Below the pieces are notes generated by a model. That model did not search any database. It saw nothing but the letters and a program-made list of their open reading frames with translations, and was not told the origin of the DNA. Of a DNA stretch of 49,911 nucleotides, positions 19,898 through 47,389 are shown one piece after another. A program made the position numbers and the translations under genes. The first letter of the stretch is position 1. Each line of letters starts with the position of its first letter. Origin of the DNA: a phage; the sequence record PZ445414.1; one strand, given 5' to 3'.

Positions 19898-19953
19898 TTG
19901 TATTTCCTCGTTTCGTTAAGTTGAAATGAGTATAGCCCCATTTGCGGGGCTTG

Positions 19954-19972
19954 TTTTAGCAATTCGTGCGGT
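19954..19972 (-). promoter_or_regulatory. box variant upstream of secreted-protein gene
   Basis: minus-strand CCGCACGAATTGCTAAAA followed by hairpin, TATACT and conserved leader. Confidence 0.4.
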
Positions 19973-20625
19973 TAGTTGTAACCCTGGAATTTCGCGTATG
20001 GTATTTTGAGGTTTCCGCACCCGTTAAAGATTTCAGAGAAAGAGCGCTGGTTTCTTCTGATCCAGTATGTCTGCAACTGCGAACCAGTCCAGCGCATGAG
20101 GTTGCCTGAATAACCCTGCGTTTCTCCGTCGTCGCTCCATTCGCCGTAGCAGGCATCCCATAGAAAGAATGGGTTAAAACCTGGAGTCACGGAGGCAACT
20201 CTAGCCTCAAGATTGAAAGACGCTGGAACGTCAAGGAATCCCATTATTCGAGGCATTGTTGCGGCGCTGGCGGCAGTCCAAACAAGATTACCGGAAGCGT
20301 CGAATACGTCGAGATAGCCGGACTTAAGTGCCTTGTTTCTCGAAGTCCTGATTATCCTGATTGCGTTAGTGCTGAACATATCCGCGCCAGGGTAGCCCCA
20401 CTGGTTATTACCTGTAAACTGAATCCAGGTTAGAAAGCCATCCTTGCGCTTATCACCATCGCGAAGATTGCCAAGGGCTTTAACGTCGCCAAATGGCGTG
20501 CTTAGGCTGTAAGCCCCAACGTCAATTAGCGGTTGCGGAGTGTAGATAGAATCAAAGATCGTATGCTTTTGATCGGAGTTGATCAGGACAACCCCCGCGT
20601 TATTACGTACCTCAAAGCCTGACAT
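19972..20625 (-). CDS. hypothetical protein (possibly tail-associated)
   Basis: 217 aa; SD AGGAGG; shares DASGNLV motif with 20634..20939. Confidence 0.5.
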   Translation of the reverse strand: MSGFEVRNNAGVVLINSDQKHTIFDSIYTPQPLIDVGAYSLSTPFGDVKALGNLRDGDKRKDGFLTWIQFTGNNQWGYPGADMFSTNAIRIIRTSRNKALKSGYLDVFDASGNLVWTAASAATMPRIMGFLDVPASFNLEARVASVTPGFNPFFLWDACYGEWSDDGETQGYSGNLMRWTGSQLQTYWIRRNQRSFSEIFNGCGNLKIPYAKFQGYN

Positions 20626-20633
20626 AAAGCCTC

Positions 20634-20939
20634 CTAGTTAAACATGTAAACTTCAATGGTAAGAGTCTGATCAGCAAACGGATTGCTTGTTGGCAGGTAA
20701 AGAACATCAACGCCGCCGTTTCTCGTCACGGCTGCATAGCTTTGTTTATACACAGCGCCAGCAGATGCCGCCATGACAACCGCGAACGAGTTGGAACCAG
20801 TCAGCCCAGCTACGTTGAAAGAAACCGAGCGAGTAGTTCGCGGGAATGAAATGTTTTTCCGGACAACAAAGCGCGTACTGAAATCGCCAAGATCGACAAC
20901 CAGGTTTCCGCTTGCATCCCATGCTTGAAGACCAGGCAT
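20634..20939 (-). CDS. hypothetical protein (paralogous motif DASGNLV)
   Basis: 101 aa; SD GAGAGGTGG; driven by sigma70-like promoter in AT-rich region. Confidence 0.5.
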   Translation of the reverse strand: MPGLQAWDASGNLVVDLGDFSTRFVVRKNISFPRTTRSVSFNVAGLTGSNSFAVVMAASAGAVYKQSYAAVTRNGGVDVLYLPTSNPFADQTLTIEVYMFN

Positions 20940-20975
20940 AATGCCACCTCTCTAGTTTGCTTATTAAGTGCATTT

Positions 20976-21004
20976 AATATACAGGCGCGGCGTAATCATT
21001 TCAA
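20976..21004 (-). promoter_or_regulatory. sigma70-like promoter TTGAAA-N17-TATATT (minus strand)
   Basis: reverse complement of 20976-21004; upstream of minus gene starting 20939. Confidence 0.55.
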
Positions 21005-21125
21005 TGGCAAATGCAAAACCTTACCTTAATTGTTCTTTTTGTTTCTCTGTGTTCTCGATTGCACCCACCGCAGAATCGCACAACGTTTTAGAACAGAAAA
21101 AACAAAATAAATCATCTATAATATA

Positions 21126-21157
21126 TAATAAAATCAATAGTTTAGTTTATATGTATT
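21126..21157. repeat. conserved ~30-bp AT-rich element containing IHF-consensus-like AATCAATAGTTTA (copy A)
   Basis: taataaaatcaatagtttagtttatatgtat; near-identical copy at 40555. Confidence 0.5.
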
Positions 21158-21388
21158 TGTATGTTGTTATTTATTGTTTCCAATGTTTCAGTGTTAATTG
21201 ATGTACTGGCTTTCTTTAGTCTGGATATCTCTATTATCCATTTGATGTGTGTATTTATATAAACCCCACCGCAAATCCGTGAACAATGAAACAAAAAATA
21301 ACGACGTTTAAAATCATGCACTTAAGAGCTGATTTTGTTATCGGGGTTGAAAGATGTGTTTCGAGAACAGAAAAAACAATTGAAGGTA

Positions 21389-21416
21389 TTGACTAAACGC
21401 CACAAATGGCTACAAT
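21389..21416 (+). promoter_or_regulatory. sigma70-like promoter TTGACT-N16-TACAAT for recombination module
   Basis: ttgact 21389-21394, tacaat 21411-21416; ~30 nt upstream of exonuclease ATG. Confidence 0.6.
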
Positions 21417-21446
21417 GCACGTATACCAACACACAGGAGCGAAAGA

Positions 21447-22505: not shown

Positions 22506-22524
22506 ACAGCACAAATAGCTAAAC
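22505..22524 (+). promoter_or_regulatory. box variant (AACAGCAC-N5-GCTAAAC)
   Basis: aacagcacaaatagctaaac upstream of 22547 ORF. Confidence 0.35.
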
Positions 22525-22546
22525 AAATGAAAATGGAGGTGTTATA

Positions 22547-22876
22547 ATGCCTCCATCAAGTAAACAAAGAGAGGATATCAGAATGGAAAACATCACCAAT
22601 GAAGAAATGATTAGCGCGGCATGTGAAGCTCATATGCGTATTTTTGTACACCGCGTCACTTTCGCCATGAAGGACTTTGTTAAGCCGCTTAATCCGGCAG
22701 ACGGCGAAGAAGAAATGAAATACATCCGTGACGTTATGGAGGCGGTTGACAACGTTGTAGCCACTGCGCTGATGGTCAAAGATAATCCAGAGGCAATCAA
22801 GATGATGAAGGAATCCACCGACAGGCTGATCAATCAGCTTATCGAGATCCACAACGGCGGCGAAGTAAAACACTAA
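22547..22876 (+). CDS. hypothetical protein
   Basis: 109-aa ORF with SD GGAGGTG; between exonuclease and Erf. Confidence 0.45.
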   Translation: MPPSSKQREDIRMENITNEEMISAACEAHMRIFVHRVTFAMKDFVKPLNPADGEEEMKYIRDVMEAVDNVVATALMVKDNPEAIKMMKESTDRLINQLIEIHNGGEVKH

Positions 22877-27629: not shown

Positions 27630-27649
27630 GATAGCACTTTTTGCTAAAA
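27630..27649 (+). promoter_or_regulatory. conserved box upstream of helicase gene
   Basis: gatagcactttttgctaaaa; TATTAT at 27669-27674. Confidence 0.5.
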
Positions 27650-27706
27650 ACACTCAAAACGTAGGAGCTATTATACATTCAATCGGTTAACGAATAAAGG
27701 TTAAAA

Positions 27707-29707
27707 ATGGCAATTCCAAATATTGACAAACAGCTTTCCGCTTTGGGTGAAGCGGTAATCAAGGCGATTCAAGATCGCTTTACGTTTGGCGGAATCACCC
27801 CATACCCTTACCAGTGCGTTGCGTACACTGAGATCGCAAAACGCATGAAAAATTACGAACATCCTTTCTTTGTGAAAGCGTCCGTATCTGCTGGCAAAAC
27901 AATGATTTTTGCAATGGTCGCGGCGCAGTGTCAGAGGATGGGGCTTAAAATGATGGTTCTCGCTCGCCAGGGTGAGATTGTGGATCAGGATTCAGAGGAG
28001 ATCAGTAATTTCGGAGTGCCTAACTCCGTCTACTGCGCGGCGCTGAAACTCAAGGGCGTACACTTCCCCATCGTGGTTGGCTCTGAGGGAACCGTTTCAA
28101 ACGGACTCTTTAAGGCGCTGGGCGACTACGTGCCGCACGTTATCGGGATTGACGAATGCCACCAGGTAGATTGGGAGGATTTAGCGGAGGCAATCGAAAA
28201 CGATGAGCCGTGGCAGCAAATGACCACGAAAAAAGGCGAGATTGTCCTGAATGGTGACGGCTCCCGCGCTCTCAACAATGACGGTGAGCCAATGGAGGGA
28301 ACCGGACGCACGCAATACACTCTTATAATTCGAGAAATGCAGCGCCGATGCAAAGAGACATACGGGCATGAGTTGCGCATTTTTGGAATGACTGGATCAG
28401 AATTTCGCGGCGTTGTTCCAATCCTGGTAGAAGATAAGCGCCAGCGCGGTTTCTGGCGTGAACAGGTGACGAACATTGATACCAACTACCTTATCAAGTT
28501 CGGCTCCGTTGTGCCTACAAACTTTGGCGGCGTAGATGGATTGGGTTATGACCTTTCAGAGTTCACCGCATCCAGCGAGGACGGAGTAGCAGACTTTGAC
28601 CAGAAAACCCTCCGAAAGATGGAGGAGAAGATCCATAAAGATGCAACCATGACGCAAAAAATCATGGCACGCGTGCATGAGATCTGCAAAGACCGCAACG
28701 GCGTGCTGGTAACTTGCGCTGGAGAGCGTCACTGCAAAGAGGCTGCCGCCGCACTTCCGCCAGGGGCAACATACAGGATCATCACTGGCAAGACCGGAGA
28801 GAAACAACGTAAAGAATGGTTAAAAGAGGCATTCGAGGGAAAAGTAAAATACATTTTCCAGGTTCAAGCACTAACAACTGGCGTAAACGTTCCATATTGG
28901 GATACGTCCGTTATCCTGCGCAAAATAGGATCGCTTACTCTGCTGATCCAGCTTTTGGGGCGCGGTATGCGACTTTTAAAGAAATGGCACATCGAGCAAG
29001 GATTCAAAAAAGACGATCACCTTGTTCTCGACTTTGCCGGATGCATGGACGAGTTGGGGCAGCTTTACTTTGATCCTATTCTGGAACAGGCGCAATATCA
29101 GCGACGTGGCGATAACGGAAAGGATCCCAAATTCTGCCCTGACTGCGGCACTGAAAACTCATTCTATGCACGCCGTTGCGTTCACGTTGACGAAAACGGG
29201 AATCGATGCGAGTATTTTTGGAAGTATCGAGAGTGCGAGGATCAGGTAGACCCGCGCACTAAAAAGGTTATCGTCAAAGGCTGCGGCACTAAAAACGACA
29301 TAGCCGCCAGGGTTTGCCGCTGCTGTGATGTGTCGCTCATTGACCCGAACGAAAAACTATCAGGCAAGCACTACACTAAGAATGATTGGTGCAATGTGAA
29401 ATCTTTCCGTGTCGATATGACCAAAAACCAGAGAGGGATCGTGTTCTGTTATGAGCTTGAGGCGCACGGGGAAACGTTCAAGGCTTATGAGCGATTCTTC
29501 CCTGAGTCTGACAACCAGATCTGCAAGACGCTATGGAGGCAAACGGCGCTCAAGCATATTGCAGATCGCAGGATTGCAGGTGTTACGGCGAGCTATCGCA
29601 ACGCTCGCAAGATTATGCAAAACGCGCATCACATTATGGCTCCGAAACGCGTTACGCATCGCAAAAACGCGAAAGGAGAGGACATTATTTATCATCGGGA
29701 GTTTTGA
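27707..29707 (+). CDS. ATP-dependent helicase (SF2, DEAH-like)
   Basis: 666 aa; Walker A SVSAGKTM, motif II GIDECHQV; C-terminal Cys clusters. Confidence 0.7.
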   Translation: MAIPNIDKQLSALGEAVIKAIQDRFTFGGITPYPYQCVAYTEIAKRMKNYEHPFFVKASVSAGKTMIFAMVAAQCQRMGLKMMVLARQGEIVDQDSEEISNFGVPNSVYCAALKLKGVHFPIVVGSEGTVSNGLFKALGDYVPHVIGIDECHQVDWEDLAEAIENDEPWQQMTTKKGEIVLNGDGSRALNNDGEPMEGTGRTQYTLIIREMQRRCKETYGHELRIFGMTGSEFRGVVPILVEDKRQRGFWREQVTNIDTNYLIKFGSVVPTNFGGVDGLGYDLSEFTASSEDGVADFDQKTLRKMEEKIHKDATMTQKIMARVHEICKDRNGVLVTCAGERHCKEAAAALPPGATYRIITGKTGEKQRKEWLKEAFEGKVKYIFQVQALTTGVNVPYWDTSVILRKIGSLTLLIQLLGRGMRLLKKWHIEQGFKKDDHLVLDFAGCMDELGQLYFDPILEQAQYQRRGDNGKDPKFCPDCGTENSFYARRCVHVDENGNRCEYFWKYRECEDQVDPRTKKVIVKGCGTKNDIAARVCRCCDVSLIDPNEKLSGKHYTKNDWCNVKSFRVDMTKNQRGIVFCYELEAHGETFKAYERFFPESDNQICKTLWRQTALKHIADRRIAGVTASYRNARKIMQNAHHIMAPKRVTHRKNAKGEDIIYHREF

Positions 29708-29709: not shown

Positions 29710-30126
29710 ATGGTTACTGACAAAGGCGATTATCTGGAATATTACGAGAGGGATCCGAGCGATACGCGCAAGGAAGATTCTCACCAGGTTGATTGTGTGG
29801 CGTGGTTGCGCCACCACTACCCACACTTGCTCTTTTGGCACACTGTAAACGAGGGGAGCAAGACAATCACCGCCGCGCTGCGTGACGAACAGGCCGGATT
29901 GCTAAAGGGCGTATCAGACTTTGTTATCCTGATTGGTTCTGGTAAATACCCGTTTGCAGCCATAGAGCTAAAGCAAGCCAACAAATCAGGCAAGCGCAAG
30001 GCTTCACCAGTCAGCGACAACCAGAAAGCTTTCTTGAGCAGGGTTAGACACTTGGGAGGTTTCGCAGCCGTTTGCTATGGCGTGAAGCAATTCAAGCTTG
30101 CAATTGCAGATCTCTTGCAGGAATAG
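29710..30126 (+). CDS. VRR-NUC domain nuclease
   Basis: 138 aa; motif DFVILIGSGKYPFAAIELKQ (D..E.K) typical of VRR-NUC; start ATG right after helicase stop. Confidence 0.6.
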   Translation: MVTDKGDYLEYYERDPSDTRKEDSHQVDCVAWLRHHYPHLLFWHTVNEGSKTITAALRDEQAGLLKGVSDFVILIGSGKYPFAAIELKQANKSGKRKASPVSDNQKAFLSRVRHLGGFAAVCYGVKQFKLAIADLLQE

Positions 30127-30141
30127 CACTTTTTGCTAAAA
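30122..30141 (+). promoter_or_regulatory. conserved box + hairpin + CATAAT upstream of lipoprotein gene
   Basis: aatagcactttttgctaaaa; inverted repeat ggcgca/tgcgcc; overlaps VRR-NUC stop TAG. Confidence 0.55.
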
Positions 30142-30198
30142 CAGGCGCAAAGGAATGCGCCATAATGCACCCAACGAAACAAACACGGAGAATTAACC

Positions 30199-30477
30199 AT
30201 GAAAAAGATGTTATCAGTAGTTGCTTTATCGCTTGCCATTGTCGGTTGCATGGATAAACCAAAAGCATATATTTGCGGAAATGAAGTGTTTGAGGTTACA
30301 AGCGAATACATGAAAGTTGTACAAGGTAAAAACACAGGCGTTGTAATGGATAATATCAGCAAAAATAAATACAAGCTGTTTACGCCAATTGGAACAGCTT
30401 TTTACACTGTTAACGATAGCACCATTGATGTTAGAGTCGGAATCTTTCAGCACACTTTAACTTGCGAGGTGAAATAA
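30199..30477 (+). CDS. lipoprotein (candidate superinfection-exclusion protein)
   Basis: 92 aa; signal peptide with lipobox LAIVGC; box-type promoter upstream. Confidence 0.55.
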   Translation: MKKMLSVVALSLAIVGCMDKPKAYICGNEVFEVTSEYMKVVQGKNTGVVMDNISKNKYKLFTPIGTAFYTVNDSTIDVRVGIFQHTLTCEVK

Positions 30478-31583: not shown

Positions 31584-31602
31584 ATAGCACTTTTTGTTAA
31601 AA
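31583..31602 (+). promoter_or_regulatory. conserved box + hairpin + CATAAT
   Basis: aatagcactttttgttaaaa; hairpin gcccg...cgggc. Confidence 0.55.
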
Positions 31603-31659
31603 ATGCCCGGCGAAAGTCGGGCATAATTATTTCCAACGAAAACCACTGAGGAAAACGAA

Positions 31660-31851
31660 ATGAAAATTTACAGCAAACGCTCTTTCAAAATCGCTCAGGA
31701 ATTAGCACGCGAGGCGGTAGCAGGAGGAAGCGAAGGGGGATACGGTTTCGATTGGGATATAGCAATGATTTACTTGCAGATGGCAACAGGTCACGCTCCA
31801 ATAGAGAAGATCGAGCAGGTTGATCGCATGGTTGAGGAGGGATTGGTTTAA
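31660..31851 (+). CDS. hypothetical protein
   Basis: 63 aa; box promoter and conserved leader upstream; SD GAGGAA. Confidence 0.5.
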   Translation: MKIYSKRSFKIAQELAREAVAGGSEGGYGFDWDIAMIYLQMATGHAPIEKIEQVDRMVEEGLV

Positions 31852-35242: not shown

Positions 35243-36820
35243 TCACCCCATTAAAGCAGGATTCACAAACACGCGCCCATTCGTGAGGCATACGTAATTC
35301 AGATCTTCAAGGATTGGCAGTAAGTGATCTTCAATTCGCTTCATCACGCCAGCCTGACCTAAGAACGGACGAACCTTTCGCACAGATTCGTAAATCGCTC
35401 GCGCAGTGATAGCGCCCTTGTTGGCTTTTCCGAGTCTGGTTATCGTGTCGATAATCTTGATCAACTCTGCATCCTGACCAGCATGACCGGAGGCGTTTGC
35501 CGCGCTAATGTAGGTCTTGCTCAACTCCTGGAACATCAAGAGCGCCTCCTGCATCGTCTCAACGTCAATCTCTCGTGACTTTGTGGCGGTTCCGTTAACA
35601 TCCTGCCAGTTTCGGATCGTGTGAATAACGGATGCCAGGCGAATGACTTGTTTATCCATTTTACCCAACGCGCCGCGTAGCATGGTGTGAGAATATTCTC
35701 CTCCGTCTGCAAGCTTTGGCTCCATTTCCTGGCGTGCCATGTTGAGCACTCGCATAGCGGAGCGGCTAACCTTTAATGAAACGGATTGCTCCATCATGAT
35801 ATTATGGATCAGCTTGTAATAATCCGCCTTAAGACCTGCATCAACTGGCGTGTAGGTTGTGTCTCCGTTGTCGTCAACGAATTTACGGCGGCCTAAGAAT
35901 GACTCCTCGCGCACCAGCAGGAAACGCTCAGAAACACCGATACCACGAGCACCAGCCTCCATAATGCCGCTGATTGTTTCGTCCTGCGCAATCACAGCCA
36001 TGCAGCCGAGAGCCGTAAAGCTCATGTTGTTTTCTGCAGTTGCACGGGCAATGGAAACGTGACCGCTATCCCAAGCCTTTAGCACCAATTCGCTGTTAGT
36101 CTTGCGCTCGCTATTGGCGTATGTCAGACCGAGCAGTGAGTTGATACTTGTTGCCTCGTCCGAGATAACAGCAAAGTTGCCCTGGCGGAAGTTGATTTTA
36201 GCCAAACCCTCTGGAGTGGTGTCTGAAACCGGAAACACCACATCGCACAGTTTTGCAAGCTTTTCCTCATACTCCTCTTTTTCCTCGTAAAGAGCGGCAT
36301 ACTCAGTGCCGGAGCGCTCGCTCTTTAATTCCTTTACGATCCCGTTGAGTTTGGCCTGAATCTTTTTGCGCTCTTTCTTGCGTTGCTCGTTGATGCTCTC
36401 AACCTCTGCAACAATCGGAGCAATAGCCATTGAGTTGATCGCGGATTTACCAGTAGACGGCGGCTGGCTGGTAACAACGTATAGCGCCGTTGGCTGATCG
36501 GTTCCGTGGTACTCCACGGTGAATCGTCCGAGCATTGCGGCAGACACGCAGCCTACAAAGTGCATATAGGCAGATGAAACAGGGAATTGCACAGACTCCG
36601 CCAGGCTGCGAGACAACTTGCCTACAACGTCGCAATCGTTGCCGAGGGAAATAACAGGGTATTTGTCGTTTCCGCTGTTAATGTCCTTCACGTCACCCCA
36701 AAAACCAGACGAGCGAGAGTATCCGTTTGCCTGGATTGCAACCTTAACGGCGCTCAAGCCTTGAGCCTCAGCCGTTGAAATGATTTGTTGTGGTGTCAGC
36801 GTGGATTGTTCAAAAAACAT
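35243..36820 (-). CDS. P-loop NTPase (putative replication/DNA-metabolism ATPase)
   Basis: 525 aa; Walker A-like SQPPSTGKSA; box promoter with hairpin-embedded TATAAT upstream. Confidence 0.45.
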   Translation of the reverse strand: MFFEQSTLTPQQIISTAEAQGLSAVKVAIQANGYSRSSGFWGDVKDINSGNDKYPVISLGNDCDVVGKLSRSLAESVQFPVSSAYMHFVGCVSAAMLGRFTVEYHGTDQPTALYVVTSQPPSTGKSAINSMAIAPIVAEVESINEQRKKERKKIQAKLNGIVKELKSERSGTEYAALYEEKEEYEEKLAKLCDVVFPVSDTTPEGLAKINFRQGNFAVISDEATSINSLLGLTYANSERKTNSELVLKAWDSGHVSIARATAENNMSFTALGCMAVIAQDETISGIMEAGARGIGVSERFLLVREESFLGRRKFVDDNGDTTYTPVDAGLKADYYKLIHNIMMEQSVSLKVSRSAMRVLNMARQEMEPKLADGGEYSHTMLRGALGKMDKQVIRLASVIHTIRNWQDVNGTATKSREIDVETMQEALLMFQELSKTYISAANASGHAGQDAELIKIIDTITRLGKANKGAITARAIYESVRKVRPFLGQAGVMKRIEDHLLPILEDLNYVCLTNGRVFVNPALMG

Positions 36821-36876
36821 CTTAAAGTCTCCTTGTTGGTTGACCTGTATTATAGGTCAACCATCTTACAGCCTTT

Positions 36877-36896
36877 TGGCAATTCGTGCTATTTTA
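36877..36896 (-). promoter_or_regulatory. conserved box upstream of P-loop ATPase gene
   Basis: minus AAAATAGCACGAATTGCCAA; TATAAT inside hairpin GGTTGACC/GGTCAACC. Confidence 0.5.
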
Positions 36897-37498: not shown

Positions 37499-37705
37499 TC
37501 ATTTCTCCATCCATTTACGATATTTGGTTAACTGGTTCATTGAGGACAAAATGCCTTGCTCTTTCATGTTGCTTGCGCGGTAAATCTCAGCTAAATAAGT
37601 CTCGCCGTTGTATAGATAAACAGAGCCGCGAAAGGTTTTCAGCTTTGGATTATCAAGACCTGCAATCATTGCCAGGAAATCCGCTTTCTTAGTCATGTGA
37701 GCCAT
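37499..37705 (-). CDS. hypothetical protein
   Basis: 68 aa from ATG 37705 after conserved leader and GAGGA; box promoter at 37764-37784. Confidence 0.45.
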   Translation of the reverse strand: MAHMTKKADFLAMIAGLDNPKLKTFRGSVYLYNGETYLAEIYRASNMKEQGILSSMNQLTKYRKWMEK

Positions 37706-37763
37706 TTGTTTTATCCTCAATTCGTTTCGTTGAGAAGATAATAGCGGATCTTATCGACCCGCT

Positions 37764-37784
37764 TTTAACAAAAAGTGCTATTTT
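37764..37784 (-). promoter_or_regulatory. conserved box (minus)
   Basis: minus AAAATAGCACTTTTTGTTAAAA; overlaps MTase stop TAG; TATTAT and leader CTCAACGAAACGAATTGAGGA follow. Confidence 0.55.
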
Positions 37785-38783: not shown

Positions 38784-39011
38784 TCAAGCTTTCCAGGTTT
38801 CGATATACATCGAATTTTCATCCAGGAAGTCGATCACATCTTGCTTTCTGTACTGGCGCAGAGTGCAGCGCGGCGATGTTCCAACGGTGTAGCAGCCTTT
38901 CCCCTCGGTGATGGTCACTTGCTTGATTTTCTCGCCTGGGATATCGCACTTGATGATCACGCGATGATGGCTATCAAGAGTTTTCATGATGTTTTCGGTT
39001 TTGAGTTTCAT
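38784..39011 (-). CDS. hypothetical protein
   Basis: 75 aa; box promoter (variant) at 39068-39087 with hairpin containing TGgTATAGT. Confidence 0.45.
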   Translation of the reverse strand: MKLKTENIMKTLDSHHRVIIKCDIPGEKIKQVTITEGKGCYTVGTSPRCTLRQYRKQDVIDFLDENSMYIETWKA

Positions 39012-39067
39012 TCGTTTATCCTCGCTCGTTGTTGATGGCGCTACTATACCAGGACTCAGCGCCGGAG

Positions 39068-39087
39068 TTTTAACAAAAAGTGCTGTC
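39068..39087 (-). promoter_or_regulatory. box variant (minus)
   Basis: minus GACAGCACTTTTTGTTAAAA; hairpin with TGgTATAGT downstream. Confidence 0.45.
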
Positions 39088-39546: not shown

Positions 39547-39746
39547 TAAATAACCTCCATAACAGTATGCTCGTCACCAGCCAGTGACCAGAGAGTGTTA
39601 GTAAGTTGCTTCACTTTCCAGGTTAGGCCGGAGTGATAGCAGACCATTTCCTCAAGGTCGATTGTGATTTCAACGCCTTTCTTGAAGATTCCGGGTGTCA
39701 GCTCTGGATTGCGGCGAATAACTTTAACCTCGATCTGGTCTTGCAT
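39546..39746 (-). CDS. hypothetical protein
   Basis: 66 aa; box promoter at 39804-39823; conserved leader. Confidence 0.45.
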   Translation of the reverse strand: MQDQIEVKVIRRNPELTPGIFKKGVEITIDLEEMVCYHSGLTWKVKQLTNTLWSLAGDEHTVMEVI

Positions 39747-39803
39747 TTTTTGATTCCTCAGTTGTTTTGTTGAGGCAATGATAGCGCATCGCCTCTGATT
39801 GGT

Positions 39804-39823
39804 TTTAACAAAAAGTGCTATTC
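39804..39823 (-). promoter_or_regulatory. conserved box (minus)
   Basis: minus AATAGCACTTTTTGTTAAAA. Confidence 0.5.
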
Positions 39824-39927: not shown

Positions 39928-40191
39928 TCAGTTCTTAACCTGGCTCATGCGATCCATTTCGCGATACCAGACGATCAAATCTTCCAGCGCCTGGAACAAG
40001 TCAGCTTTCTTTGTCTCTTTAATGGTGTCACATACTAGGTTGATATCACATTCCAGCACACCGAGATACTCACCATACTGGCGGCAACCTTCAATGTTGT
40101 CTGCCTTGCTGGTGCGGCGATTGTTACGCTGCGCACGGCAAATCAGGCTGATGATGTTGCTGGTTTCTTTGCTGGTGATGTGATAGGTCAT
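39928..40191 (-). CDS. hypothetical protein
   Basis: 87 aa from ATG 40191 (MTYHITSKE) placed by conserved leader/SD; box at 40248-40267. Confidence 0.45.
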   Translation of the reverse strand: MTYHITSKETSNIISLICRAQRNNRRTSKADNIEGCRQYGEYLGVLECDINLVCDTIKETKKADLFQALEDLIVWYREMDRMSQVKN

Positions 40192-40247
40192 TTCGTTTTC
40201 CTCATTTCGTTTCGATGAATGCATTATGCCAAATCCAGATCACGTAG

Positions 40248-40267
40248 TTTTAGCAAAAAGTGCTATT
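40248..40267 (-). promoter_or_regulatory. conserved box (minus)
   Basis: minus AATAGCACTTTTTGCTAAAA; CATAAT and leader CATCGAAACGAAATGAGGA follow. Confidence 0.55.
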
Positions 40268-40554: not shown

Positions 40555-40586
40555 TAATAAAATCAATAGTTTATTTTATATATATT
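40555..40586. repeat. conserved ~30-bp AT-rich element containing IHF-consensus-like AATCAATAGTTTA (copy B)
   Basis: taataaaatcaatagtttattttatatatat; matches WATCAANNNNTTR. Confidence 0.5.
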
Positions 40587-40851: not shown

Positions 40852-40880
40852 CTTGTGGAAACCGATTGTAACATGCATAA
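40852..40880 (+). promoter_or_regulatory. sigma70-like promoter TTGTGG-N17-CATAAT for rightward early array
   Basis: followed by leader CACCGAAACGAACAAACGGAGG and ATG 40914. Confidence 0.5.
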
Positions 40881-40913
40881 TGCACACCGAAACGAACAAA
40901 CGGAGGTAAAACG

Positions 40914-41339
40914 ATGTCAGATCAATCATTTGGCGACCAGTTGCGTGCAGCGGCGCGAATGCTGGCGAGTGGGGAGCGTGATGAAATTATCATGACCGAC
41001 TACCAGTTACAGCAAGCGTCCGGCAAGGAGAAAATCAACCCAAGCCATATCCGTACAACTATGGCGCGAGAGGTTCGCACCCTGGGGGCTATCAGCGTGA
41101 AGCGCATCACGGATCCGGTTGGCTACGTTTGCACATTCAACCCTGACCCGAAAAAGCGAGCGATTGCCAGCGACGAGCTACCAGCAATCAAGGCGCGTGC
41201 GGCTAACAAGGCACTGAAAGCGATTGCAGACGTGATGCCAAATCTCACATACCTGGAGGGCGAGCAGTTGCAGGGCGCTATCATTGCGGTGCAGCGCTAC
41301 CAGGATTTAATCAAGAAGCAAATCAACGAGGAGGTTTAA
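40914..41339 (+). CDS. hypothetical early protein
   Basis: 141 aa; sigma70-like promoter and conserved leader upstream; SD GGAGG. Confidence 0.5.
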   Translation: MSDQSFGDQLRAAARMLASGERDEIIMTDYQLQQASGKEKINPSHIRTTMAREVRTLGAISVKRITDPVGYVCTFNPDPKKRAIASDELPAIKARAANKALKAIADVMPNLTYLEGEQLQGAIIAVQRYQDLIKKQINEEV

Positions 41340-41341
41340 TT

Positions 41342-41602: not shown

Positions 41603-41608
41603 TTGGTA

Positions 41609-41628
41609 AATAGCACTTTTTGTTAAAA
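41609..41628 (+). promoter_or_regulatory. conserved box + hairpin + ATAATA
   Basis: aatagcactttttgttaaaa; hairpin gcccc...ggggc. Confidence 0.55.
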
Positions 41629-41686
41629 CTGCCCCGCGCGAGTGGGGCATAATAGCCTCAACGAAACGAATTGAGGAGATTGCAAA

Positions 41687-41842
41687 ATGGTTACACTGAT
41701 TACCTGGGAGCACGAGAGCAGCAACGCGGTAGTGCGCGAGTTTGATTCAGTAGCAGCGTGCCACAGCCTGGCCGCTAACGGCGGTTTCTATAAAGCGCAG
41801 ATTGTAAACGAGTTTGGGGTGGTTGATTATGAGTTTCATTAA
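41687..41842 (+). CDS. hypothetical small protein (51 aa)
   Basis: ATG after box promoter, conserved leader and SD GAGGAG; below ORF-track length cutoff. Confidence 0.35.
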   Translation: MVTLITWEHESSNAVVREFDSVAACHSLAANGGFYKAQIVNEFGVVDYEFH

Positions 41843-42411: not shown

Positions 42412-42751
42412 CGCTCAGGCACGCAACTATGCGCTAAAGCACGGCGTGCATATCTACGGACTGACCAATGAGCAGAGCCGCGCCCTGGTTTTCTACGATA
42501 TCGCCAGCGGTACAAAGCTTTGCACTTACAAGAGCTACAGCGATGATAACCCATTGCAGAAGTCGATCAACTACAAGATGAAGCCGGAAACCTGGCAAGC
42601 GATGCCGGATGATATCCGCACGGCTCAGGGTGTGCAAAAGGCAATCGAGGCGATGGTTGCAACTGGCACGGCGCGACTGCTGGACGAGGACGAATTAGCG
42701 GAAGCACGAAACAAGATCCTGGCGCGGTCAACGGGAGTTGAGATCCTATGA
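42401..42751 (+). CDS. hypothetical protein
   Basis: 116 aa from ATG 42401 after GAGGTGG. Confidence 0.4.
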   Translation: MKINAQARNYALKHGVHIYGLTNEQSRALVFYDIASGTKLCTYKSYSDDNPLQKSINYKMKPETWQAMPDDIRTAQGVQKAIEAMVATGTARLLDEDELAEARNKILARSTGVEIL

Positions 42752-42810
42752 GTAGTTGGCACAATGAGCACGTCATGCAATTCTACCGCCAACGGATAAA
42801 GAAAATCCTC

Positions 42811-42830
42811 AATAGCACGAATTGCTAAAA
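42811..42830 (+). promoter_or_regulatory. conserved box + hairpin containing TATAGT
   Basis: aatagcacgaattgctaaaa. Confidence 0.55.
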
Positions 42831-42891
42831 CACCAGATCGGGGTTGCGCTATAGTAACCCCATCGAAACGAAACACACTGAGGAGCACAAA

Positions 42892-43059
42892 ATGAAATCT
42901 CGCAAATACCGCAACATCTTCAACAACCTGACGTACTGGCTGGAGGACGGCGCTGTCATGGTTAGCAACGGCGAGAAAACAAAGAAATCGCTGTTAAGCG
43001 CAGAGGAGTTTTTCATTGCGGTAGGCCGTGACGTTCTGGTACTGATTGAGGGGGAATAA
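42892..43059 (+). CDS. hypothetical protein (55 aa)
   Basis: ATG 42892 after box promoter, conserved leader CATCGAAACGAAAC and SD GAGGAG. Confidence 0.45.
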   Translation: MKSRKYRNIFNNLTYWLEDGAVMVSNGEKTKKSLLSAEEFFIAVGRDVLVLIEGE

Positions 43060-43062
43060 TAC

Positions 43063-43305
43063 ATGCTATCAATTCGCAACTGGTTTATGCGCTTCATCGG
43101 GAAAGAGGTTGAGGCTTTCGGCTACAACATTCCGGCAAACTTCAAGCGTGCTTGTCCTGGCAATGCCAGCGGGGTTTATTGGGAAATGCCAGACGGCACA
43201 TACTGGTTCACGGTTATTTCTGGAATGCCGATCCAGGTTAGTGAGCGCGACTATGAGCGCGGAACGTGGTTTACAGCAATGCAAGAGGTCGGGGAGGAAT
43301 TTTAA
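43063..43305 (+). CDS. hypothetical protein
   Basis: 80-aa ORF; Trp/Phe-rich. Confidence 0.4.
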   Translation: MLSIRNWFMRFIGKEVEAFGYNIPANFKRACPGNASGVYWEMPDGTYWFTVISGMPIQVSERDYERGTWFTAMQEVGEEF

Positions 43306-43841
43306 TGATCAAATTTGAGCTTTGGGGTTACACATACCATCTGCGCGGCACTTATGGTGTCGCAATCGTTGACCTGGACGGCACGCTTTCGGACGGCACG
43401 CACCGCTTGCACCTGCTGCCAACAAAGGACTTGCACCTCACTGAAAGCTGGAGCGAGTTTAACAAGGCGGCTGCAAACGACAAGCCGATCCAGAGCACGA
43501 TTGATGTTGTGCGCAACCTTTGGCGTGCTGGAATGGGCGTCGTTATCCTGACTGGTCGCAGTGACGAGGTGGAAACCGACACTATCCTTTGGCTAGACCG
43601 CCATAAGGTGAAATATGACTGGCTTATCATGCGCCGCGCCGAGGATAACCGAAAGGACACCGTTATCAAAGAGGAGGTGTTGCGTGCAATAGGTCTGCAT
43701 CATATTACGTGCGCCTTTGACGACTCGCCAAACGTGATCAGCCATTTCCGCAGCCTGGGAATCACAACCTATCAGGTGACGGAATACGACAAGCCTCACT
43801 CTCATTTGCAGAGTCACGGCGTGGATGAATTAGATGGATAA
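43305..43841 (+). CDS. HAD-superfamily phosphatase (DxDGT motif)
   Basis: 178 aa from ATG 43305 (SD GGGGAGG); motif I VAIVDLDGTLSDGTHR as in HAD hydrolases / polynucleotide 3'-phosphatases. Confidence 0.5.
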   Translation: MIKFELWGYTYHLRGTYGVAIVDLDGTLSDGTHRLHLLPTKDLHLTESWSEFNKAAANDKPIQSTIDVVRNLWRAGMGVVILTGRSDEVETDTILWLDRHKVKYDWLIMRRAEDNRKDTVIKEEVLRAIGLHHITCAFDDSPNVISHFRSLGITTYQVTEYDKPHSHLQSHGVDELDG

Positions 43842-44046
43842 GATCGTAACATGGATTTTCGGAGCGGTGATTGCCGCTCTATCCGTCCTGCTGGTGCTCA
43901 TAATTTGGGCGGCGGTATACATGACAGCGAGCGACGATTACACCTGCGAGAAAACAGGCCGCCAAGTTCTTGTTATGATTCCGTCTGGTAAAGTCATGGT
44001 TCCTATCATGCAGGACGAAACTATTTGCAAGAGGGTTGAGAAATGA
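43834..44046 (+). CDS. small membrane protein
   Basis: 70 aa; N-terminal TM helix IFGAVIAALSVLLVLIIWAAV. Confidence 0.4.
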   Translation: MDKIVTWIFGAVIAALSVLLVLIIWAAVYMTASDDYTCEKTGRQVLVMIPSGKVMVPIMQDETICKRVEK

Positions 44047-44258
44047 TTGTGACGCACGATGTAGAGCCAGGCGCGAGCACTGCGCGTGATATGATTGCCG
44101 GAATGCCGCCAAAATCGCACAGAATGGTACGTGTACGCGGTTATAATTTCAATGTCAGCCAAACGCTCAAGGAAATTTTAGCCTTGCCAGAAGTCGATAC
44201 AGCGCTTGTGGGAGTGCATACAAATGAATATGTTTCTTTCCACATTGTGACAAAGTGA
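44043..44258 (+). CDS. hypothetical protein
   Basis: 71 aa; ATGA coupling. Confidence 0.4.
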   Translation: MIVTHDVEPGASTARDMIAGMPPKSHRMVRVRGYNFNVSQTLKEILALPEVDTALVGVHTNEYVSFHIVTK

Positions 44259-44265
44259 GGTTGAC

Positions 44266-44475
44266 GTGATTCTTACAGTAGCTTTTGCCAATCCGCGAGC
44301 GTGCAACATCTTTGGATTCAGGGAGAGGATGCGCATTGAGGCCGAGCGCAACGATAAAGGCATCCTTTACGTCAAATCGCCAAAAACTGGCGTTGCAATG
44401 ATGGTCAAGGAGAATGGAGGCCGGATGTTCATTCGCTCAATGTCAGGCCAGGATCTGGTGACTTTCACAAAATAG
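44266..44475 (+). CDS. hypothetical protein
   Basis: 69 aa; GTG start after GAGG; stop TAG embedded in next box. Confidence 0.35.
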   Translation: MILTVAFANPRACNIFGFRERMRIEAERNDKGILYVKSPKTGVAMMVKENGGRMFIRSMSGQDLVTFTK

Positions 44476-44490
44476 CACGAATTGCTAAAA
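44471..44490 (+). promoter_or_regulatory. conserved box; TATAAT at 44510-44515
   Basis: aatagcacgaattgctaaaa; overlaps upstream stop TAG. Confidence 0.55.
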
Positions 44491-44547
44491 CGCGCTCCGA
44501 TAGGGGCGCTATAATGCACCCATACCAAGCAACGAGAGGAAAACAAA

Positions 44548-44778
44548 ATGAAATATCAAGTATTCAAGGCAGTAGACAAAATCGACGGCGACTTGTCAAT
44601 TTTCGTTTTCGACGAGAATGATAATTACACTGTGATTTTTTATTCTGATTACCTGCTTGGCCGAGTCATTGATCGAATTAAAAATGGGGATGGTTGCGAC
44701 TTGTCGGCGGACTCAATCGAATGCCCGCGCCGAAATGACATGGTAAATCCTGTTTTACTGTGCGAGATTGAAGCATGA
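44548..44778 (+). CDS. hypothetical protein
   Basis: 76 aa; box promoter with TATAAT at 44510-44515 upstream. Confidence 0.45.
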   Translation: MKYQVFKAVDKIDGDLSIFVFDENDNYTVIFYSDYLLGRVIDRIKNGDGCDLSADSIECPRRNDMVNPVLLCEIEA

Positions 44779-44966
44779 AGTGCATCCGGTCAACATACGA
44801 TCTATTCAAGGCGGGTGAGAGCTACCCGCTAATTGAGAAAGGCCAGGCTGGGCGGTTCACGGTGTACGAATACACCGACTCGCAGGGTTGGGTTTACACG
44901 TTCGGCCTAGACGAGAATCTTGAGCAAGAAACAGACGGCAATTTCATTAAATTTACAAAGGAGTAA
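44775..44966 (+). CDS. hypothetical protein
   Basis: 63 aa; ATGA coupling. Confidence 0.4.
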   Translation: MKCIRSTYDLFKAGESYPLIEKGQAGRFTVYEYTDSQGWVYTFGLDENLEQETDGNFIKFTKE

Positions 44967-44970
44967 CAAG

Positions 44971-45201
44971 ATGATTGAGATCAAATTCGATGGCAACTCT
45001 AAGCGATTCAACGGCGTACAGATCCACAAAGATGCAACACACGCGGTAGCTGGTCGCAATTTCGGCACTTATTTTAAGCTAAATGGCGAATGGTATTTCA
45101 CAGTTTTCTCTGGCTACGCGCTGAAAGCAACGGTTGCGTCTCATGACTTTGATATCCGCGATCACATCAGAGACGACGCAAAAATCACAGAGTTTAAATA
45201 G
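44971..45201 (+). CDS. hypothetical protein
   Basis: 76 aa from ATG 44971 after AAAGGAG. Confidence 0.4.
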   Translation: MIEIKFDGNSKRFNGVQIHKDATHAVAGRNFGTYFKLNGEWYFTVFSGYALKATVASHDFDIRDHIRDDAKITEFK

Positions 45202-45216
45202 CACTTTTTGCTAAAG
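45197..45216 (+). promoter_or_regulatory. conserved box; TGgTATAGT in hairpin loop
   Basis: aatagcactttttgctaaag. Confidence 0.55.
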
Positions 45217-45280
45217 ACTTTCCGCGAGGCCATTGGTATAGTGGCCTCATTGAAAGCAATCACGCAAACAGGAGATAAAA

Positions 45281-45438
45281 ATGCGTAACTTTGAGAAAAT
45301 CCGCACTAACAAAGACCGTCGCGCCGCTGGTGAGATTGTGGACTCACACCGTCGACGCAAGAAAACCCAAAAGCGCGGGAGTGAGGCAAAGCGCATGGAT
45401 TGGGATCAACTTCAAACTAACTACAAGGCAGGTCGATA
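45281..45438 (+). CDS. small basic protein (52 aa)
   Basis: ATG 45281 after box promoter, leader and SD CAGGAG; Arg/Lys-rich; preferred over out-of-frame track ORF 45291..45533. Confidence 0.45.
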
Positions 45439-46005
45439 ATGAAAAAGGTAATTATTCTCAACGCGCCACCAGGGGCTGGCAAAGACACCATCGGAAATCT
45501 GATTTGCAAGCATGCTCCGCAATACGTTGTTAAGCGCTCATTCAAAGAGCCGATGTTCAAGATCGCAAAGGCAATGTTGGGTGATTATCGTTTCGGTCTG
45601 TTTATGCAAGCGTATGACGACAGGGGGCAGAAAGAAAGAGCGCAATCTTTCCTGAATGGTAAATCACCTCGCCAGTTTATGATCTGGATTAGCGAGGACG
45701 TGATAAAACCTCAATTTGGGGATCAGTATTTTGGCGTGGTAATGGCTGAGGCCGTGCGAGATAGCCAGGTTCCGGTTGTCATTACTGACGGCGGTTTCCC
45801 CGATGAAGTTAAACCACTGGTCAGTGCTGGGATTCAGGTAAACATTTGCCGCCTACATCGTGACGGCTACACGTTTGCCGGAGATAGCAGGGATTATCTC
45901 AATCTTGAGGGCTACCATCACCGAATCGTGACGCGAGATTACATCCTGGTAAATGGCGATCCGATGCATACAATGATTCAGATCTGTGAGGATATTTTGG
46001 AATGA
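45439..46005 (+). CDS. P-loop kinase (putative nucleotide/polynucleotide kinase)
   Basis: 188 aa; Walker A NAPPGAGKDT at N-terminus; TAATG coupling. Confidence 0.5.
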   Translation: MKKVIILNAPPGAGKDTIGNLICKHAPQYVVKRSFKEPMFKIAKAMLGDYRFGLFMQAYDDRGQKERAQSFLNGKSPRQFMIWISEDVIKPQFGDQYFGVVMAEAVRDSQVPVVITDGGFPDEVKPLVSAGIQVNICRLHRDGYTFAGDSRDYLNLEGYHHRIVTRDYILVNGDPMHTMIQICEDILE

Positions 46006-46105
46006 TAACCACACCACACGATCCAAAAGAGCCGTTTGACTTCCACAAGGCCGCCGTTATCGGCCTTACAATCCTAACTGTCATTTACACTGTACGAGGT
46101 ATTTT

Positions 46106-46303
46106 ATGGCTGTTAACACACTAAAACGAATTGGCGTTATCATGCTAATTATCGGAGGGTCATTGCTAACAGAGCCAGGTTTTGCAAACACGGCTGGAAG
46201 TATGGCGCTGTTAATCGGCGGTCTTATTGGCGGCTACATGGACGGCGTAAAGGCTGGGCGGCGTGAGGCGTTCGGCGGTGAAGATAAAAATCCGATTAAA
46301 TAG
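46106..46303 (+). CDS. small membrane protein
   Basis: 65 aa; two hydrophobic Gly-rich segments; SD GAGG. Confidence 0.4.
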   Translation: MAVNTLKRIGVIMLIIGGSLLTEPGFANTAGSMALLIGGLIGGYMDGVKAGRREAFGGEDKNPIK

Positions 46304-46318
46304 CACGAATCGCTAAAA
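46299..46318 (+). promoter_or_regulatory. conserved box variant (TCGCTA)
   Basis: aatagcacgaatcgctaaaa; TGgTAAAGT downstream. Confidence 0.5.
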
Positions 46319-46384
46319 CTTCCGCGAGGGCATTTGGTAAAGTGTCCTCATTGAAGCAAAGCAACCAATCAAGGAGATAACGAA

Positions 46385-46663
46385 ATGGCTACTATCCGCA
46401 AACACCTGGTAAACGCATTCGAGAACGTTGGCGAGCGCTACGGCTGGGATGATGGACTGAAAACACCATACACGGCACGCCGCCAGGGTTTCAACTCACT
46501 GCGCGAGTGGGCGCGATGCATGGCGGCTAACTACATGCCGGAGAACTGGCAACTCATGCCTGACTCACTGCGCGAAATGATCGAAGATGCACAGGCGGCA
46601 GGTGTGCCACTCACTCAGCATGATTTTGACGATTACGCAGAGGAAGAAATTTTATGCTGGTGA
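46385..46663 (+). CDS. hypothetical protein
   Basis: 92 aa; box promoter (variant) and leader upstream; SD AAGGAG. Confidence 0.45.
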   Translation: MATIRKHLVNAFENVGERYGWDDGLKTPYTARRQGFNSLREWARCMAANYMPENWQLMPDSLREMIEDAQAAGVPLTQHDFDDYAEEEILCW

Positions 46664-46848
46664 AAATCCGTACTGATTATGAGGACTCGCCGTGGATAGC
46701 GGCGGGTAAGATTTACGAGGCGGTATTGGTTAAAACAGGCCGCTACGCAGGAACGTATAAGTTTATTGGGGAGTTAGGCTCCCCGTGCTACACAAGGCTT
46801 GAGCGTTCAATTCACATCGGCGGGAAAGATTGGGAGATTGTAGAATGA
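46654..46848 (+). CDS. hypothetical protein
   Basis: 64 aa; overlaps neighbours by a few nt. Confidence 0.4.
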   Translation: MLVKIRTDYEDSPWIAAGKIYEAVLVKTGRYAGTYKFIGELGSPCYTRLERSIHIGGKDWEIVE

Positions 46849-47318
46849 AATATTATGTGCGTCCTACTGTAGATGGTGAAAACTTTACTGCTGGCAAACT
46901 CTACGAGATCCAGCATTGCTTTGGAACTGGTCGCGTTATCGTGCTCAACGATGCAAAAGAGGAAACCATTGTGCGTTGCGATGGAATTGTGTCGGCTCGC
47001 CTGGACTGGCGCGGAAAGTTTGATCGCGTGAACATTCCAGGCGCTCAAGAAGCTATGGAGTCGGCGCAATCCGCTGCGGAGTATATGCTGAAAGTTGGGA
47101 TTGGTCGCCATGGCGGCTGGCAGCACAGCAAGATCGGGCAGGTGACTATCAGCGACGGGCAAATCTACGCAAGTGCATCGCCTCGCAACGAGTACGTCGA
47201 AGTGCTGGAACAGTTACGCGAAATTCTGCGCGTGCCGGAGGGTGAGAATATCCTGACTCATGCGAAAGTTGTGCGCGTGCTGGCTGATGGGTTAATCAAC
47301 CTCCAGAAAACGAAATAG
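46845..47318 (+). CDS. hypothetical protein
   Basis: 157 aa from ATG 46845. Confidence 0.45.
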   Translation: MKYYVRPTVDGENFTAGKLYEIQHCFGTGRVIVLNDAKEETIVRCDGIVSARLDWRGKFDRVNIPGAQEAMESAQSAAEYMLKVGIGRHGGWQHSKIGQVTISDGQIYASASPRNEYVEVLEQLREILRVPEGENILTHAKVVRVLADGLINLQKTK

Positions 47319-47333
47319 CACTTTTTGCTAAAA
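47314..47333 (+). promoter_or_regulatory. conserved box; TGgTATAGT in hairpin loop
   Basis: aatagcactttttgctaaaa. Confidence 0.55.
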
Positions 47334-47389
47334 CTCAGATGGGGTAGGCTGGTATAGTTACCCCATCGAAACGAAACGGAGACACCAAA

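Follow-up and report, generated by a model that had tools for sequence, protein, structure and literature searches.

Among described systems, the nearest to the element analyzed here are the PeSLs, repeated mobile regulatory cassettes in the genomes of the T4-type phages RB49/phi1, PST, and nt-1 (Arbiol et al. 2010, PMC2839356; Comeau et al. 2014, PMC4122927). Those reports describe PeSLs that preferentially adjoin ORFans (PMC2839356, PMC4122927), that proved experimentally to be both very strong promoters and terminators, with stem-loops between the -35 and -10 elements or over the -10 element (PMC2839356), and whose stem-loops terminate transcription about as well as rrnB T1 and whose promoters are too strong for easy cloning (PMC2839356, PMC4122927). 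The crossovers of PeSL mini-circles map between the -10 element and the Shine-Dalgarno (SD) sequence (PMC2839356). Here we analyze a short conserved leader, A(T/A)CGAAACGAA, that precedes many genes of Escherichia phage IsaakIselin (Bas10; Drexlerviridae, Tempevirinae, Henuseptimavirus), whose 49,911-nucleotide sequence (record PZ445414.1) is called the window below. The leader is the 3' part of a 75- to 80-bp terminator-promoter cassette repeated about 17 times in the window, and its position follows the predicted transcription start site (TSS). We see an even chance that it is the initial transcribed sequence (ITS; about +1 to +11) of very strong promoters read by host RNA polymerase (sigma-70) and packaged in these cassettes.

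A leader in register with the predicted transcript start

Positions 37000-48000 of the window match the IsaakIselin record MZ501077.1 at 100% by megablast, window coordinates being those of that record minus 533, and the region that contains the leader holds replication and recombination genes and two arms of small genes without known function. The 9-nt core CGAAACGAA occurs exactly six times on the two strands, compared to a mean of 0.74 in 100 dinucleotide shuffles, none of which reached six. All six copies lie within 37721-47375, 15 to 25 nt 5' of an ATG and just upstream of an SD sequence. Copies with one mismatch were not enriched in the window (23 versus 17.7), and the signal therefore consists of exact, positioned copies. 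When a weight matrix for positions -1 to +11, built from T1-like contigs in the IMG/VR database, was scanned over the whole window, its seven top matches (at least 13.4 bits) were exactly the promoter-associated leaders, with a predicted +1 at 47365, 42862, 41660, 40886, and 30173 on the plus strand and at 40216 and 37731 on the minus strand. Weaker members, in which the core is displaced or carries a G-to-A change, are found at 19912-19922(-), 31635-31645(+), 39026-39036(-), and 39761-39771(-), and a second leader type, ATACCAA.. or ATTGAAGCAA.., is found at 44522, 45249, and 46350.

A preliminary description of this DNA had quoted seven strings as examples of a common leader lying between a -10-like element and the SD sequence of many box-associated genes. 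All seven strings are present at or beside the positions given for them, the common leader is borne out, and it is very probably transcribed. It had also asked whether the similarity was any greater than SD-proximal composition would produce. Across 57 nonorthologous modules, positions +2 to +14 hold 6.8 bits, compared to 2.86 +/- 0.11 bits for internally shuffled leaders (z of about 35), and the similarity therefore exceeds A-rich, SD-proximal composition. Chance or composition as the origin of the leader is ruled out by this comparison together with the enrichment of exact copies and the matrix scan.

The cassettes were found by listing every gene with an upstream gap and then searching for an accompanying box. 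Their order is constant: the stop codon of the upstream gene, a palindromic box of the form TAGCA-N5-TGCTA, a fixed 22-bp spacer, the -10 element, the leader, the SD sequence, and the ATG. The box reads AATAGCAC(TTTT/GAAT)TGYTAAAAC, and 16 modules of the window align on it without gaps. The -10 elements are TATAGT, CATAAT, TATCAT, and similar hexamers, often preceded by TGn (extended -10), and are separated from the leader by 6 nt that are C-rich and end in C. In all modules of the window the ATG lies at +23 to +36, with about +26 typical. Six of the seven strong-leader modules (+1 at 47365, 42862, 41660, 30173, 40216, and 37731) have the box. The seventh, at 40886, has the leader without it, and the leader is therefore not tied to the box.

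In IMG/VR, the box pattern occurs in at least 120 stretches, mostly on contigs of about 50 kb; totals from these scans are lower bounds, the modules are phylogenetically redundant, and their clustering is crude. Phage T1 also has the cassettes, with the leader in a weaker form. In 307 distinct T1-like modules aligned on the box, the position of the -10 element is fixed, A-11 and T-7 are invariant, TG at -15/-14 is frequent, and G(-14) has a frequency of 0.77 to 0.84. The consensus 3' of the -10 element (TAnnnT) is CCCC-A-T-C-G-A-A-A-C-G-A-A, in which the first A is the seventh base after the -10 element. Transcription from sigma-70 promoters starts most often at the seventh base after the -10 element, preferably in a C(-1)/A(+1) context; from this distance and this context, we predict the TSS at that A. 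The string CGAAAC begins at +3 in 96 of the modules, at +8 (the second repeat) in 10, and elsewhere in 2, and the information summed over +1 to +11 is 8.2 bits when modules are aligned on the -10 element but 4.0 bits when they are aligned on the ATG. The register thus follows the -10 element and predicted TSS, not the SD sequence or ATG. In 57 nonorthologous clusters the leader consensus persists (7.0 bits), with U at no more than 0.12 from +3 to +17. Among 12 orthologue groups, which were set by downstream coding similarity only, +1 to +11 is the least variable free segment, with a pairwise difference of 0.046 versus 0.16 for the spacer and 0.088 for coding sequence.

The same transcript start appears behind promoters of other phages. 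A scan of IMG/VR for TAnnnT-N5-CATCGAAACGAA returned many non-T1-like contigs, most of which have a canonical TTGACA-type -35 element and extended -10 element upstream and an SD sequence and ATG at +21 to +38 downstream. When no -10 element was required, a scan for CATCGAAACGAAAC returned at least 35 sequence families, and TAnnnT lies exactly at -12 to -7 in 16 of the 35 families listed, compared to the 0.46 that a background of 0.013 per position predicts. At phi80 pL, where the -35 and -10 elements are annotated, the transcript starts with ATCGAAACGAAACATCGAC and runs into a putative nutL boxA, and N follows about 410 nt later. Other carriers are the T4-like Cronobacter phage S13, Klebsiella phage KP15, Citrobacter phage CfP1, and the rV5/CR3-like CR9. 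Among RB49 PeSLs the start ATCGAAACGA(A/G) occurs five times and a version shifted by 2 nt, ATACCGAAACGAA, five times, and the starts of T7 A1 and T7 A3 are cATCGAgaggg and cATGAAACGAcag. A start found behind T4-like, rV5-like, and lambda-like promoters alike belongs to the promoter, not to the ribosome-binding site. Calling these transcripts early, as the preliminary description did, is an assumption: in RB49 the equivalent elements count as early, and the KP15 record labels its elements "putative middle promoter; discovered using MEME," with terminators overlapping them.

A motif tied to +1, placed behind unrelated promoter elements, and also present on a noncoding leader is most economically read as an ITS. 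Positions +1 to +20 are 49% A, 21% G, and 12% T (70% purine), and the first 11 nt, purine-rich and almost free of U, would lie in the stretch transcribed before RNA polymerase leaves the promoter. Promoters this strong would be expected to be limited by escape, and the leader would lower abortive cycling and speed escape. At escape-limited phage promoters, changes in the ITS shift productive output 25- to >100-fold, and ITSs with a purine-rich nontemplate strand favor escape, which is facile with the T7 A1 ITS (PMC12464699). The same bases would also give a short, unstructured, A-rich 5' untranslated region (UTR) with the SD sequence open.

One alternative gives that last property the leading part, the bases mattering as the 5' end of the mRNA, A-rich and unstructured for 30S/S1 binding and translation and U-free for resistance to RNase E. 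It is a possible explanation, though not one we would favor. Leaders are indeed far less structured than random sequence, with a mean minimum free energy (MFE) for +1 to +45 of -1.8 kcal/mol versus -7.6 kcal/mol for random 45-mers of the window, and the modal 5' UTR length of 25 to 26 nt puts the whole leader within one ribosome footprint. The low U content of +3 to +17 fits as well, and the shifted cores of RB49 and of the cassette at 19912 suggest some positional tolerance relative to +1. However, the register follows the -10 element, the gap between the 3' end of the motif and the SD sequence varies from 0 to about 16 nt, and the positional signal goes beyond composition. Complementarity of the leader to rRNA, looked for as in enhancers of the epsilon or g10-L type, is at chance level, the best ungapped pairing being 9/11 for both 16S and 23S and 47 to 55% of shuffled leaders doing equally well. 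The same 11-mer also starts the noncoding phi80 pL/nutL leader, so a translational function is not intrinsic to it. Of the translational enhancer suggested in the preliminary description, what stands is the generic expectation that an unstructured 5' UTR should favor translation; a dedicated enhancer is opposed by the register, the noncoding use in phi80, and the chance-level rRNA pairing. An RNase processing site, also suggested there, finds no footing in a leader that has neither structure nor an Rfam match (no family reached its gathering score in a scan of the whole window) and whose near lack of U is contrary to what an RNase E or RNase III site would show.

The third role that the preliminary description had offered was that of a regulator target. 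A dedicated phage-encoded regulator is an unlikely reader of a motif that occurs in unrelated phage families. In a broader form, the tandem CGAAA-CGAAA, as DNA (+3 to +12) or as RNA, would be bound by a protein that silences this class of promoters or sets its timing; it could come from the phage, the Cro/YdaS-like bas10_0033 being an example, or from the host. Composition leaves the direct pentamer repeat and its invariant CG steps unexplained, an operator over +1 to +12 would sit in a classic repressor position, and a gene for a phage helix-turn-helix (HTH) regulator adjoins a divergent box promoter. We still consider such a target very improbable. The T1-like, T4-like, rV5-like, and lambdoid carriers have no common regulators, so that only a host factor would fit, and we know of no host factor with such a site. 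The repeat also lacks dyad symmetry, and the strength of the motif is graded continuously among the promoters of one genome. A sigma-70 promoter-proximal pause element of the lambda PR' type was looked for in the leader, and no -10-like hexamer (A at position 2, T at position 6) was found; the consensus has no T after +2.

Several observations weigh against an ITS function. The conserved CpG steps at +3/+4 and +8/+9 are not explained by a purine-rich, U-poor requirement and resemble the Y-G step of pause sites. The core is shifted by 2 nt in the equally common RB49 variant and by 5 nt at 19912, and it may therefore work by itself and not by contacts with RNA polymerase at a locked position. 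In T1-like phages the +1 is itself predicted from the C/A context and the spacing to the -10 element, and computation does not tell a role of the DNA in initiation apart from one of the RNA 5' end. Because the phi80-type ITS and the nutL leader downstream of it are passed on as a unit, the 40 or more copies of this ITS represent one lineage. Finally, the box promoters lack a -35 element at 16 to 18 bp and are missed by a standard scan, and their activity, itself predicted, may depend on some further factor.

Box, spacer hairpin, and individual cassettes

The 20-bp box, AATAGCAC-N4-TGYTAAAAC, stands at a fixed 22 bp from the -10 element, centered near -42, in place of a -35 element; what box promoters have instead of a hexamer at 16 to 18 bp is the TTGCTA of the box at 22 bp. 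A standard -35/-10 scan of the window returned 29 promoter-like sites versus 24.4 in shuffled sequence, not above background, and found none of the box promoters. Besides T1-like phages, T1 included, the box occurs in the T4-like KP15 and CfP1. It matches 13 of the 15 positions of the Escherichia coli Lrp consensus from systematic evolution of ligands by exponential enrichment, yAGhAwATTwTdCTr (PMC5554404), a resemblance that we offer as a lead only. As a candidate protein, bas10_0033 was rejected: it is a weak Cro/YdaS-like HTH protein, not an Lrp/AsnC protein, and no link from it to box or leader could be made.

At 15870-15957, a terminator precedes a -10 element, TATAAT (15903-15908), in the loop of a hairpin, GGTTGC/GCAACC, and a box-like ACAGCACAAATTGTTAAAAC lies downstream of this promoter, within the leader of the tail-tip J gene (ATG 15955). 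A box placed 3' of a promoter suggests repression, in addition to activation, as a possible role of the box factor.

Two other promoter types were considered and rejected. In T4 middle promoters the distance between the MotA box and the -10 element is about 12 bp, compared to 22 bp between TGCTA and the -10 element here. A promoter for a phage RNA polymerase, or a hairpin promoter of the N4 type, does not agree with the variable hairpin position and the sigma-70-type -10 element, and no RNA polymerase gene is among the annotated genes of record positions 19500-49911. Our literature search returned no promoter or TSS work on T1 or Drexlerviridae and no match for the box or leader strings.

The 22-bp spacer usually contains a GC hairpin whose stem sequences vary between modules. 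In the 57 clusters, spacer plus discriminator folds with a mean MFE of -9.6 kcal/mol, versus -4.6 kcal/mol for shuffles, and hairpins in the window have z values from -2.9 to -4.5. There are two layouts. In one, the 3' arm ends at -13 and is followed by the U-rich -10 element, which makes the hairpin terminator-like; in the other, the stem encloses the -10 element and ends at -1. The hairpin would attenuate or terminate the upstream transcript; a standard terminator scan of the window scored only two spacer hairpins as terminators. GATC, or (G)ATC(G/A)GGGG, recurs in the region of the 5' arm (for example, at 42835-42838 and in many T1-like modules) and sometimes lengthens the stem by pairing with the ATC of +1 to +3; the phage encodes a Dam-like methylase.

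Individual cassettes are collected in Table 1. In addition to the boxes of its six full cassettes, the window has about 11 more copies.

Table 1. Cassettes, box-less promoter, and further box copies in the window (bits, weight-matrix score of the leader; z, folding score of the hairpin)
Feature	Coordinates	Strand	Box	-10 element	Leader	ATG	Hairpin and remarks
Full cassette	47315..47392	+	47315-47334	47353-47358	ATCGAAACGAA, 47365-47375; predicted +1 47365; 15.4 bits	47390	GGGGTA..TACCCC encloses extended -10 TGGTATAGT; SD GGAG
Full cassette	42812..42894	+	42812-42831	TATAGT 42850-42855	ATCGAAACGAA, 42862-42872; 15.4 bits	42892	GGGGTT..AACCCC encloses -10; z = -4.46
Full cassette	41610..41689	+	41610-41629	CATAAT 41648-41653	AACGAAACGAA, 41660-41670; 14.0 bits	41687	GCCCCGCG..GGGGC 5' of -10; z = -3.59
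Full cassette	40189..40266	-	40247-40266	CATAAT 40223-40228	ATCGAAACGAA, 40206-40216; 15.4 bits	40191-40189	
Full cassette	37703..37781	-	37762-37781	TATTAT 37738-37743	AACGAAACGAA, 37721-37731	37705-37703	Terminator-like AGCGGGTC..GATCCGCT, then -10; z = -4.42; scored terminator-like by scan
Full cassette	30123..30201	+	30123-30142	CATAAT 30161-30166	AACGAAACAAA, 30173-30183	30199	GGCGCA..TGCGCC
Box-less promoter	40876..40916	+	None	CATAAT 40876-40881	(AC)CGAAACGAA, core 40888-40896	40914	
Degenerate-box cassette	19895..19972	-	19953-19972	TATACT 19929-19934	AACTTAACGAAACGAGG, core displaced 5 nt	19897-19895	GCCCC..GGGGC; z = -3.65
Cassette	31584..31662	+	Present	(C)ATAAT(T) ~31622-31628	AACGAAAACCA, 31635-31645	31660	Terminator-like ATGCCCGG..CCGGGCAT; z = -4.54; scored terminator-like by scan
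Cassette, weak leader	39009..39086	-		Extended, TGGTATAGT	ATCAACAACGA, 39026-39036		GGCGCT..AGCGCC encloses extended -10
Cassette, G-to-A leader	39744..39821	-		TATCAT	AACAAAACAAC, 39761-39771		GAGGC..GCCTC encloses -10
Cassette before helicase gene	36818..36892	-		TATAAT 36849-36854	CAACCAACAAGG, without core motif		GGTTGACC..AGGTCAACC encloses -10
Cassette, second leader type	44472..44550	+			ATACCAAGCAACGAGAGG from 44522; resembles RB49 variant ATACCGAAACGAA		
Cassette	45198..45283	+		TGGTATAGT	ATTGAAAGCAA, 45249-45259		GAGGCC..GGCCTC encloses TGGTATAGT; z = -2.93
Cassette	46300..46387	+		TAAAGT 46338-46343	ATTGAAGCAAA, 46350-46360		
Cassette, weak leader	27631..27709	+			AATCGGTTAACGAA		Precedes DNA helicase gene; divergent from regulator gene bas10_0033
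Variant-box cassette	22506..22585	+	ACAGCACAAATAGCTAAA, 21-bp spacing	TATAAT	Without core motif		GGAGG..CCTCC encloses TATAAT
Sister copy of 22506..22585	27117-27194	-					
Further box copy	1569-1588		1569-1588				
Further box copy	6076-6095	-	6076-6095				

For bas10_0059 the annotated start codon (ATG 40224) falls within CATAATG, the -10 element of the gene's own promoter (40189-40228, minus strand). The start of this gene is likely ATG 40191, which has the SD sequence GAGGAA 8 nt upstream and gives a product of 87 amino acids (aa). Between this promoter and the divergent box-less one extends an AT-rich intergenic region of 689 bp (40225-40913) with short repeats of the GATTTGAT type at 40338-40373 and with TGTAACATGCA(A/T)AA at 40773 and 40867, the second copy of which abuts the -10 element of the box-less promoter. 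This may be an origin or operator region.

Cassettes at the breakpoints of related genomes

Comparisons with relatives in Henuseptimavirus placed many internal ends of synteny blocks in cassettes: 10 of 18 for Henu7, 11 of 20 for AS5, and 10 of 22 for BubbaBully (31/60), in a region (36700-48300) of which 11 cassettes cover about 11%. Several of these ends lie at +7 to +13 or at the ATG. Gene gains, losses, and replacements among Henuseptimavirus phages are bounded by cassettes. Extra genes of AS5 (subject 5625-5804 and 9551-9769) are flanked by duplicated box-to-leader segments, and the breakpoint of a BubbaBully deletion of 41668-42228 is at +8 of the leader. With their synteny breakpoints, the cassettes are therefore also recombination joints, and the leader, being common to all of them, would hence also form the right-hand edge of homology where cassettes recombine.

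Exchange appears to reach beyond T1-like phages. A 92-aa open reading frame (ORF; MKL.RE.I..) stands behind a box/ITS cassette both in CfP1 and in four T1-like contigs, with 65 to 71% aa identity, which looks like a transfer of gene plus cassette between a T4-like myovirus and T1-like siphoviruses. In contigs of phi80-like prophages that differ in their immunity operators, homology begins exactly at the transcript start ATCGAAACGAA, and the motif thus coincides with the mosaic joint that links the immunity module to the nutL/N leader.

One could explain the leader itself from such exchange, as a linker or hitchhiker kept mainly as the homology of mobile cassettes by gene conversion and horizontal spread, a joint for the shuffling of ORFans. 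The concentration of block ends in cassettes, the duplicated segments around the AS5 genes, and the 92-aa ORF common to CfP1 and T1-like contigs all agree with this, as do the position of the PeSL crossovers (PMC2839356) and the RecE-like exonuclease and annealing protein encoded by the phage. We nevertheless think it unlikely as the main reason for conservation. Unrelated discriminators and unrelated downstream leaders flank the 11-mer in many families, and an island of this size is too short to be kept by homologous exchange; the spacer between box and -10 element is not homogenized (the 0.16 versus 0.046 noted above); and a neutral linker need not begin exactly at +1.

A wider proposal joins both aspects. 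It holds that ATCGAAACGAA is a specific 5' transcript-start signal exchanged among unrelated phages of Enterobacterales (Drexlerviridae, Straboviridae, rV5/CR3-like phages, and phi80-type lambdoids), read by a host component, whether RNA polymerase during initial transcription or a factor of RNA 5'-end binding or decay, and that it is at the same time the common joint by which promoter-plus-ORFan cassettes move between families. We put this forward as speculation, and as a whole it is doubtful.

Relation to known promoters and mobile cassettes

Nonstructural genes of T1-like phages are apparently organized by the same kind of mobile terminator-promoter cassettes as those of T4-type phages. For a model phage of the BASEL collection, the analysis yields about 17 concrete promoter and TSS predictions. 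An 11-nt start conserved at +1 in four unrelated phage groups makes control of output by the ITS, so far a matter of in vitro work, testable on a natural, selected sequence, and common cassette edges, together with one gene-plus-cassette found in T4-like and T1-like phages, suggest a route of gene exchange between families. In practice, the cassettes are predicted to be compact, very strong, insulated expression units.

As a transcript start, the leader is most like the ITSs of T7 A1, T7 A3, and T5 N25, which likewise occupy +1 to about +20 and have a purine-rich nontemplate strand. T7 A1 begins C(-1)ATCGA, equal to the consensus at -1 to +5, and T7 A3 begins ATGAAACGAC, which includes the GAAACGA of the leader. 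The identity is only partial, however, and those ITSs belong to single promoters, whereas the motif described here occurs about 17 times per genome and across families; unlike the T7 and T5 ITSs, ATCGAAACGAA is an ITS by prediction. The pL/nutL of phi80-type phages has an annotated -10 element, 6 nt ending in CC, and then ATCGAAACGAAAC, common to many immunity types, but it differs in having a noncoding leader of about 400 nt with boxA in place of an SD sequence and ATG, a single copy per genome, and operators where the box would be. The promoters of T7-type phage RNA polymerases resemble the cassettes in being repeated many times in a genome and in having a consensus (-17 to +6, GGGAGA) that extends into the transcribed region; they are read by a single-subunit phage polymerase, whereas the -10 element here is of the sigma-70 type.

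The fullest likeness is to the PeSLs, and the cassette is the T1-like counterpart of these T4-type cassettes. Both are intergenic repeats that extend from the upstream stop codon to the next SD sequence and ATG, both have a strong -10 element of the sigma-70 type, which in T1-like cassettes belongs to a predicted promoter, and both place GC stem-loops (GGGG..CCCC) either between the upstream element and the -10 element or over the latter. The RB49 PeSL transcript start ATCGAAACGA(A/G) equals that of the T1-like cassette, although the accessible parts of the PeSL papers do not list a conserved transcript start among the components. Small ORFans adjoin both kinds of cassette, and both contain the breakpoints of insertions, deletions, and replacements between close relatives; in the window, eight downstream or neighboring proteins match only PHROGs without known function, or none. 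The two differ in the upstream element, which in PeSLs is a -35 hexamer at 17 bp and here is the palindromic box at a fixed 22 bp (also present in some cassettes of KP15 and CfP1), and in their hosts, T4-type phages for PeSLs and a 50-kb siphovirus here. Promoter and terminator activity and mini-circles have been demonstrated for the PeSLs of RB49/phi1, whereas the cassette of IsaakIselin, with the same order of parts and the same first transcribed bases, is a counterpart recognized in the genome sequence.

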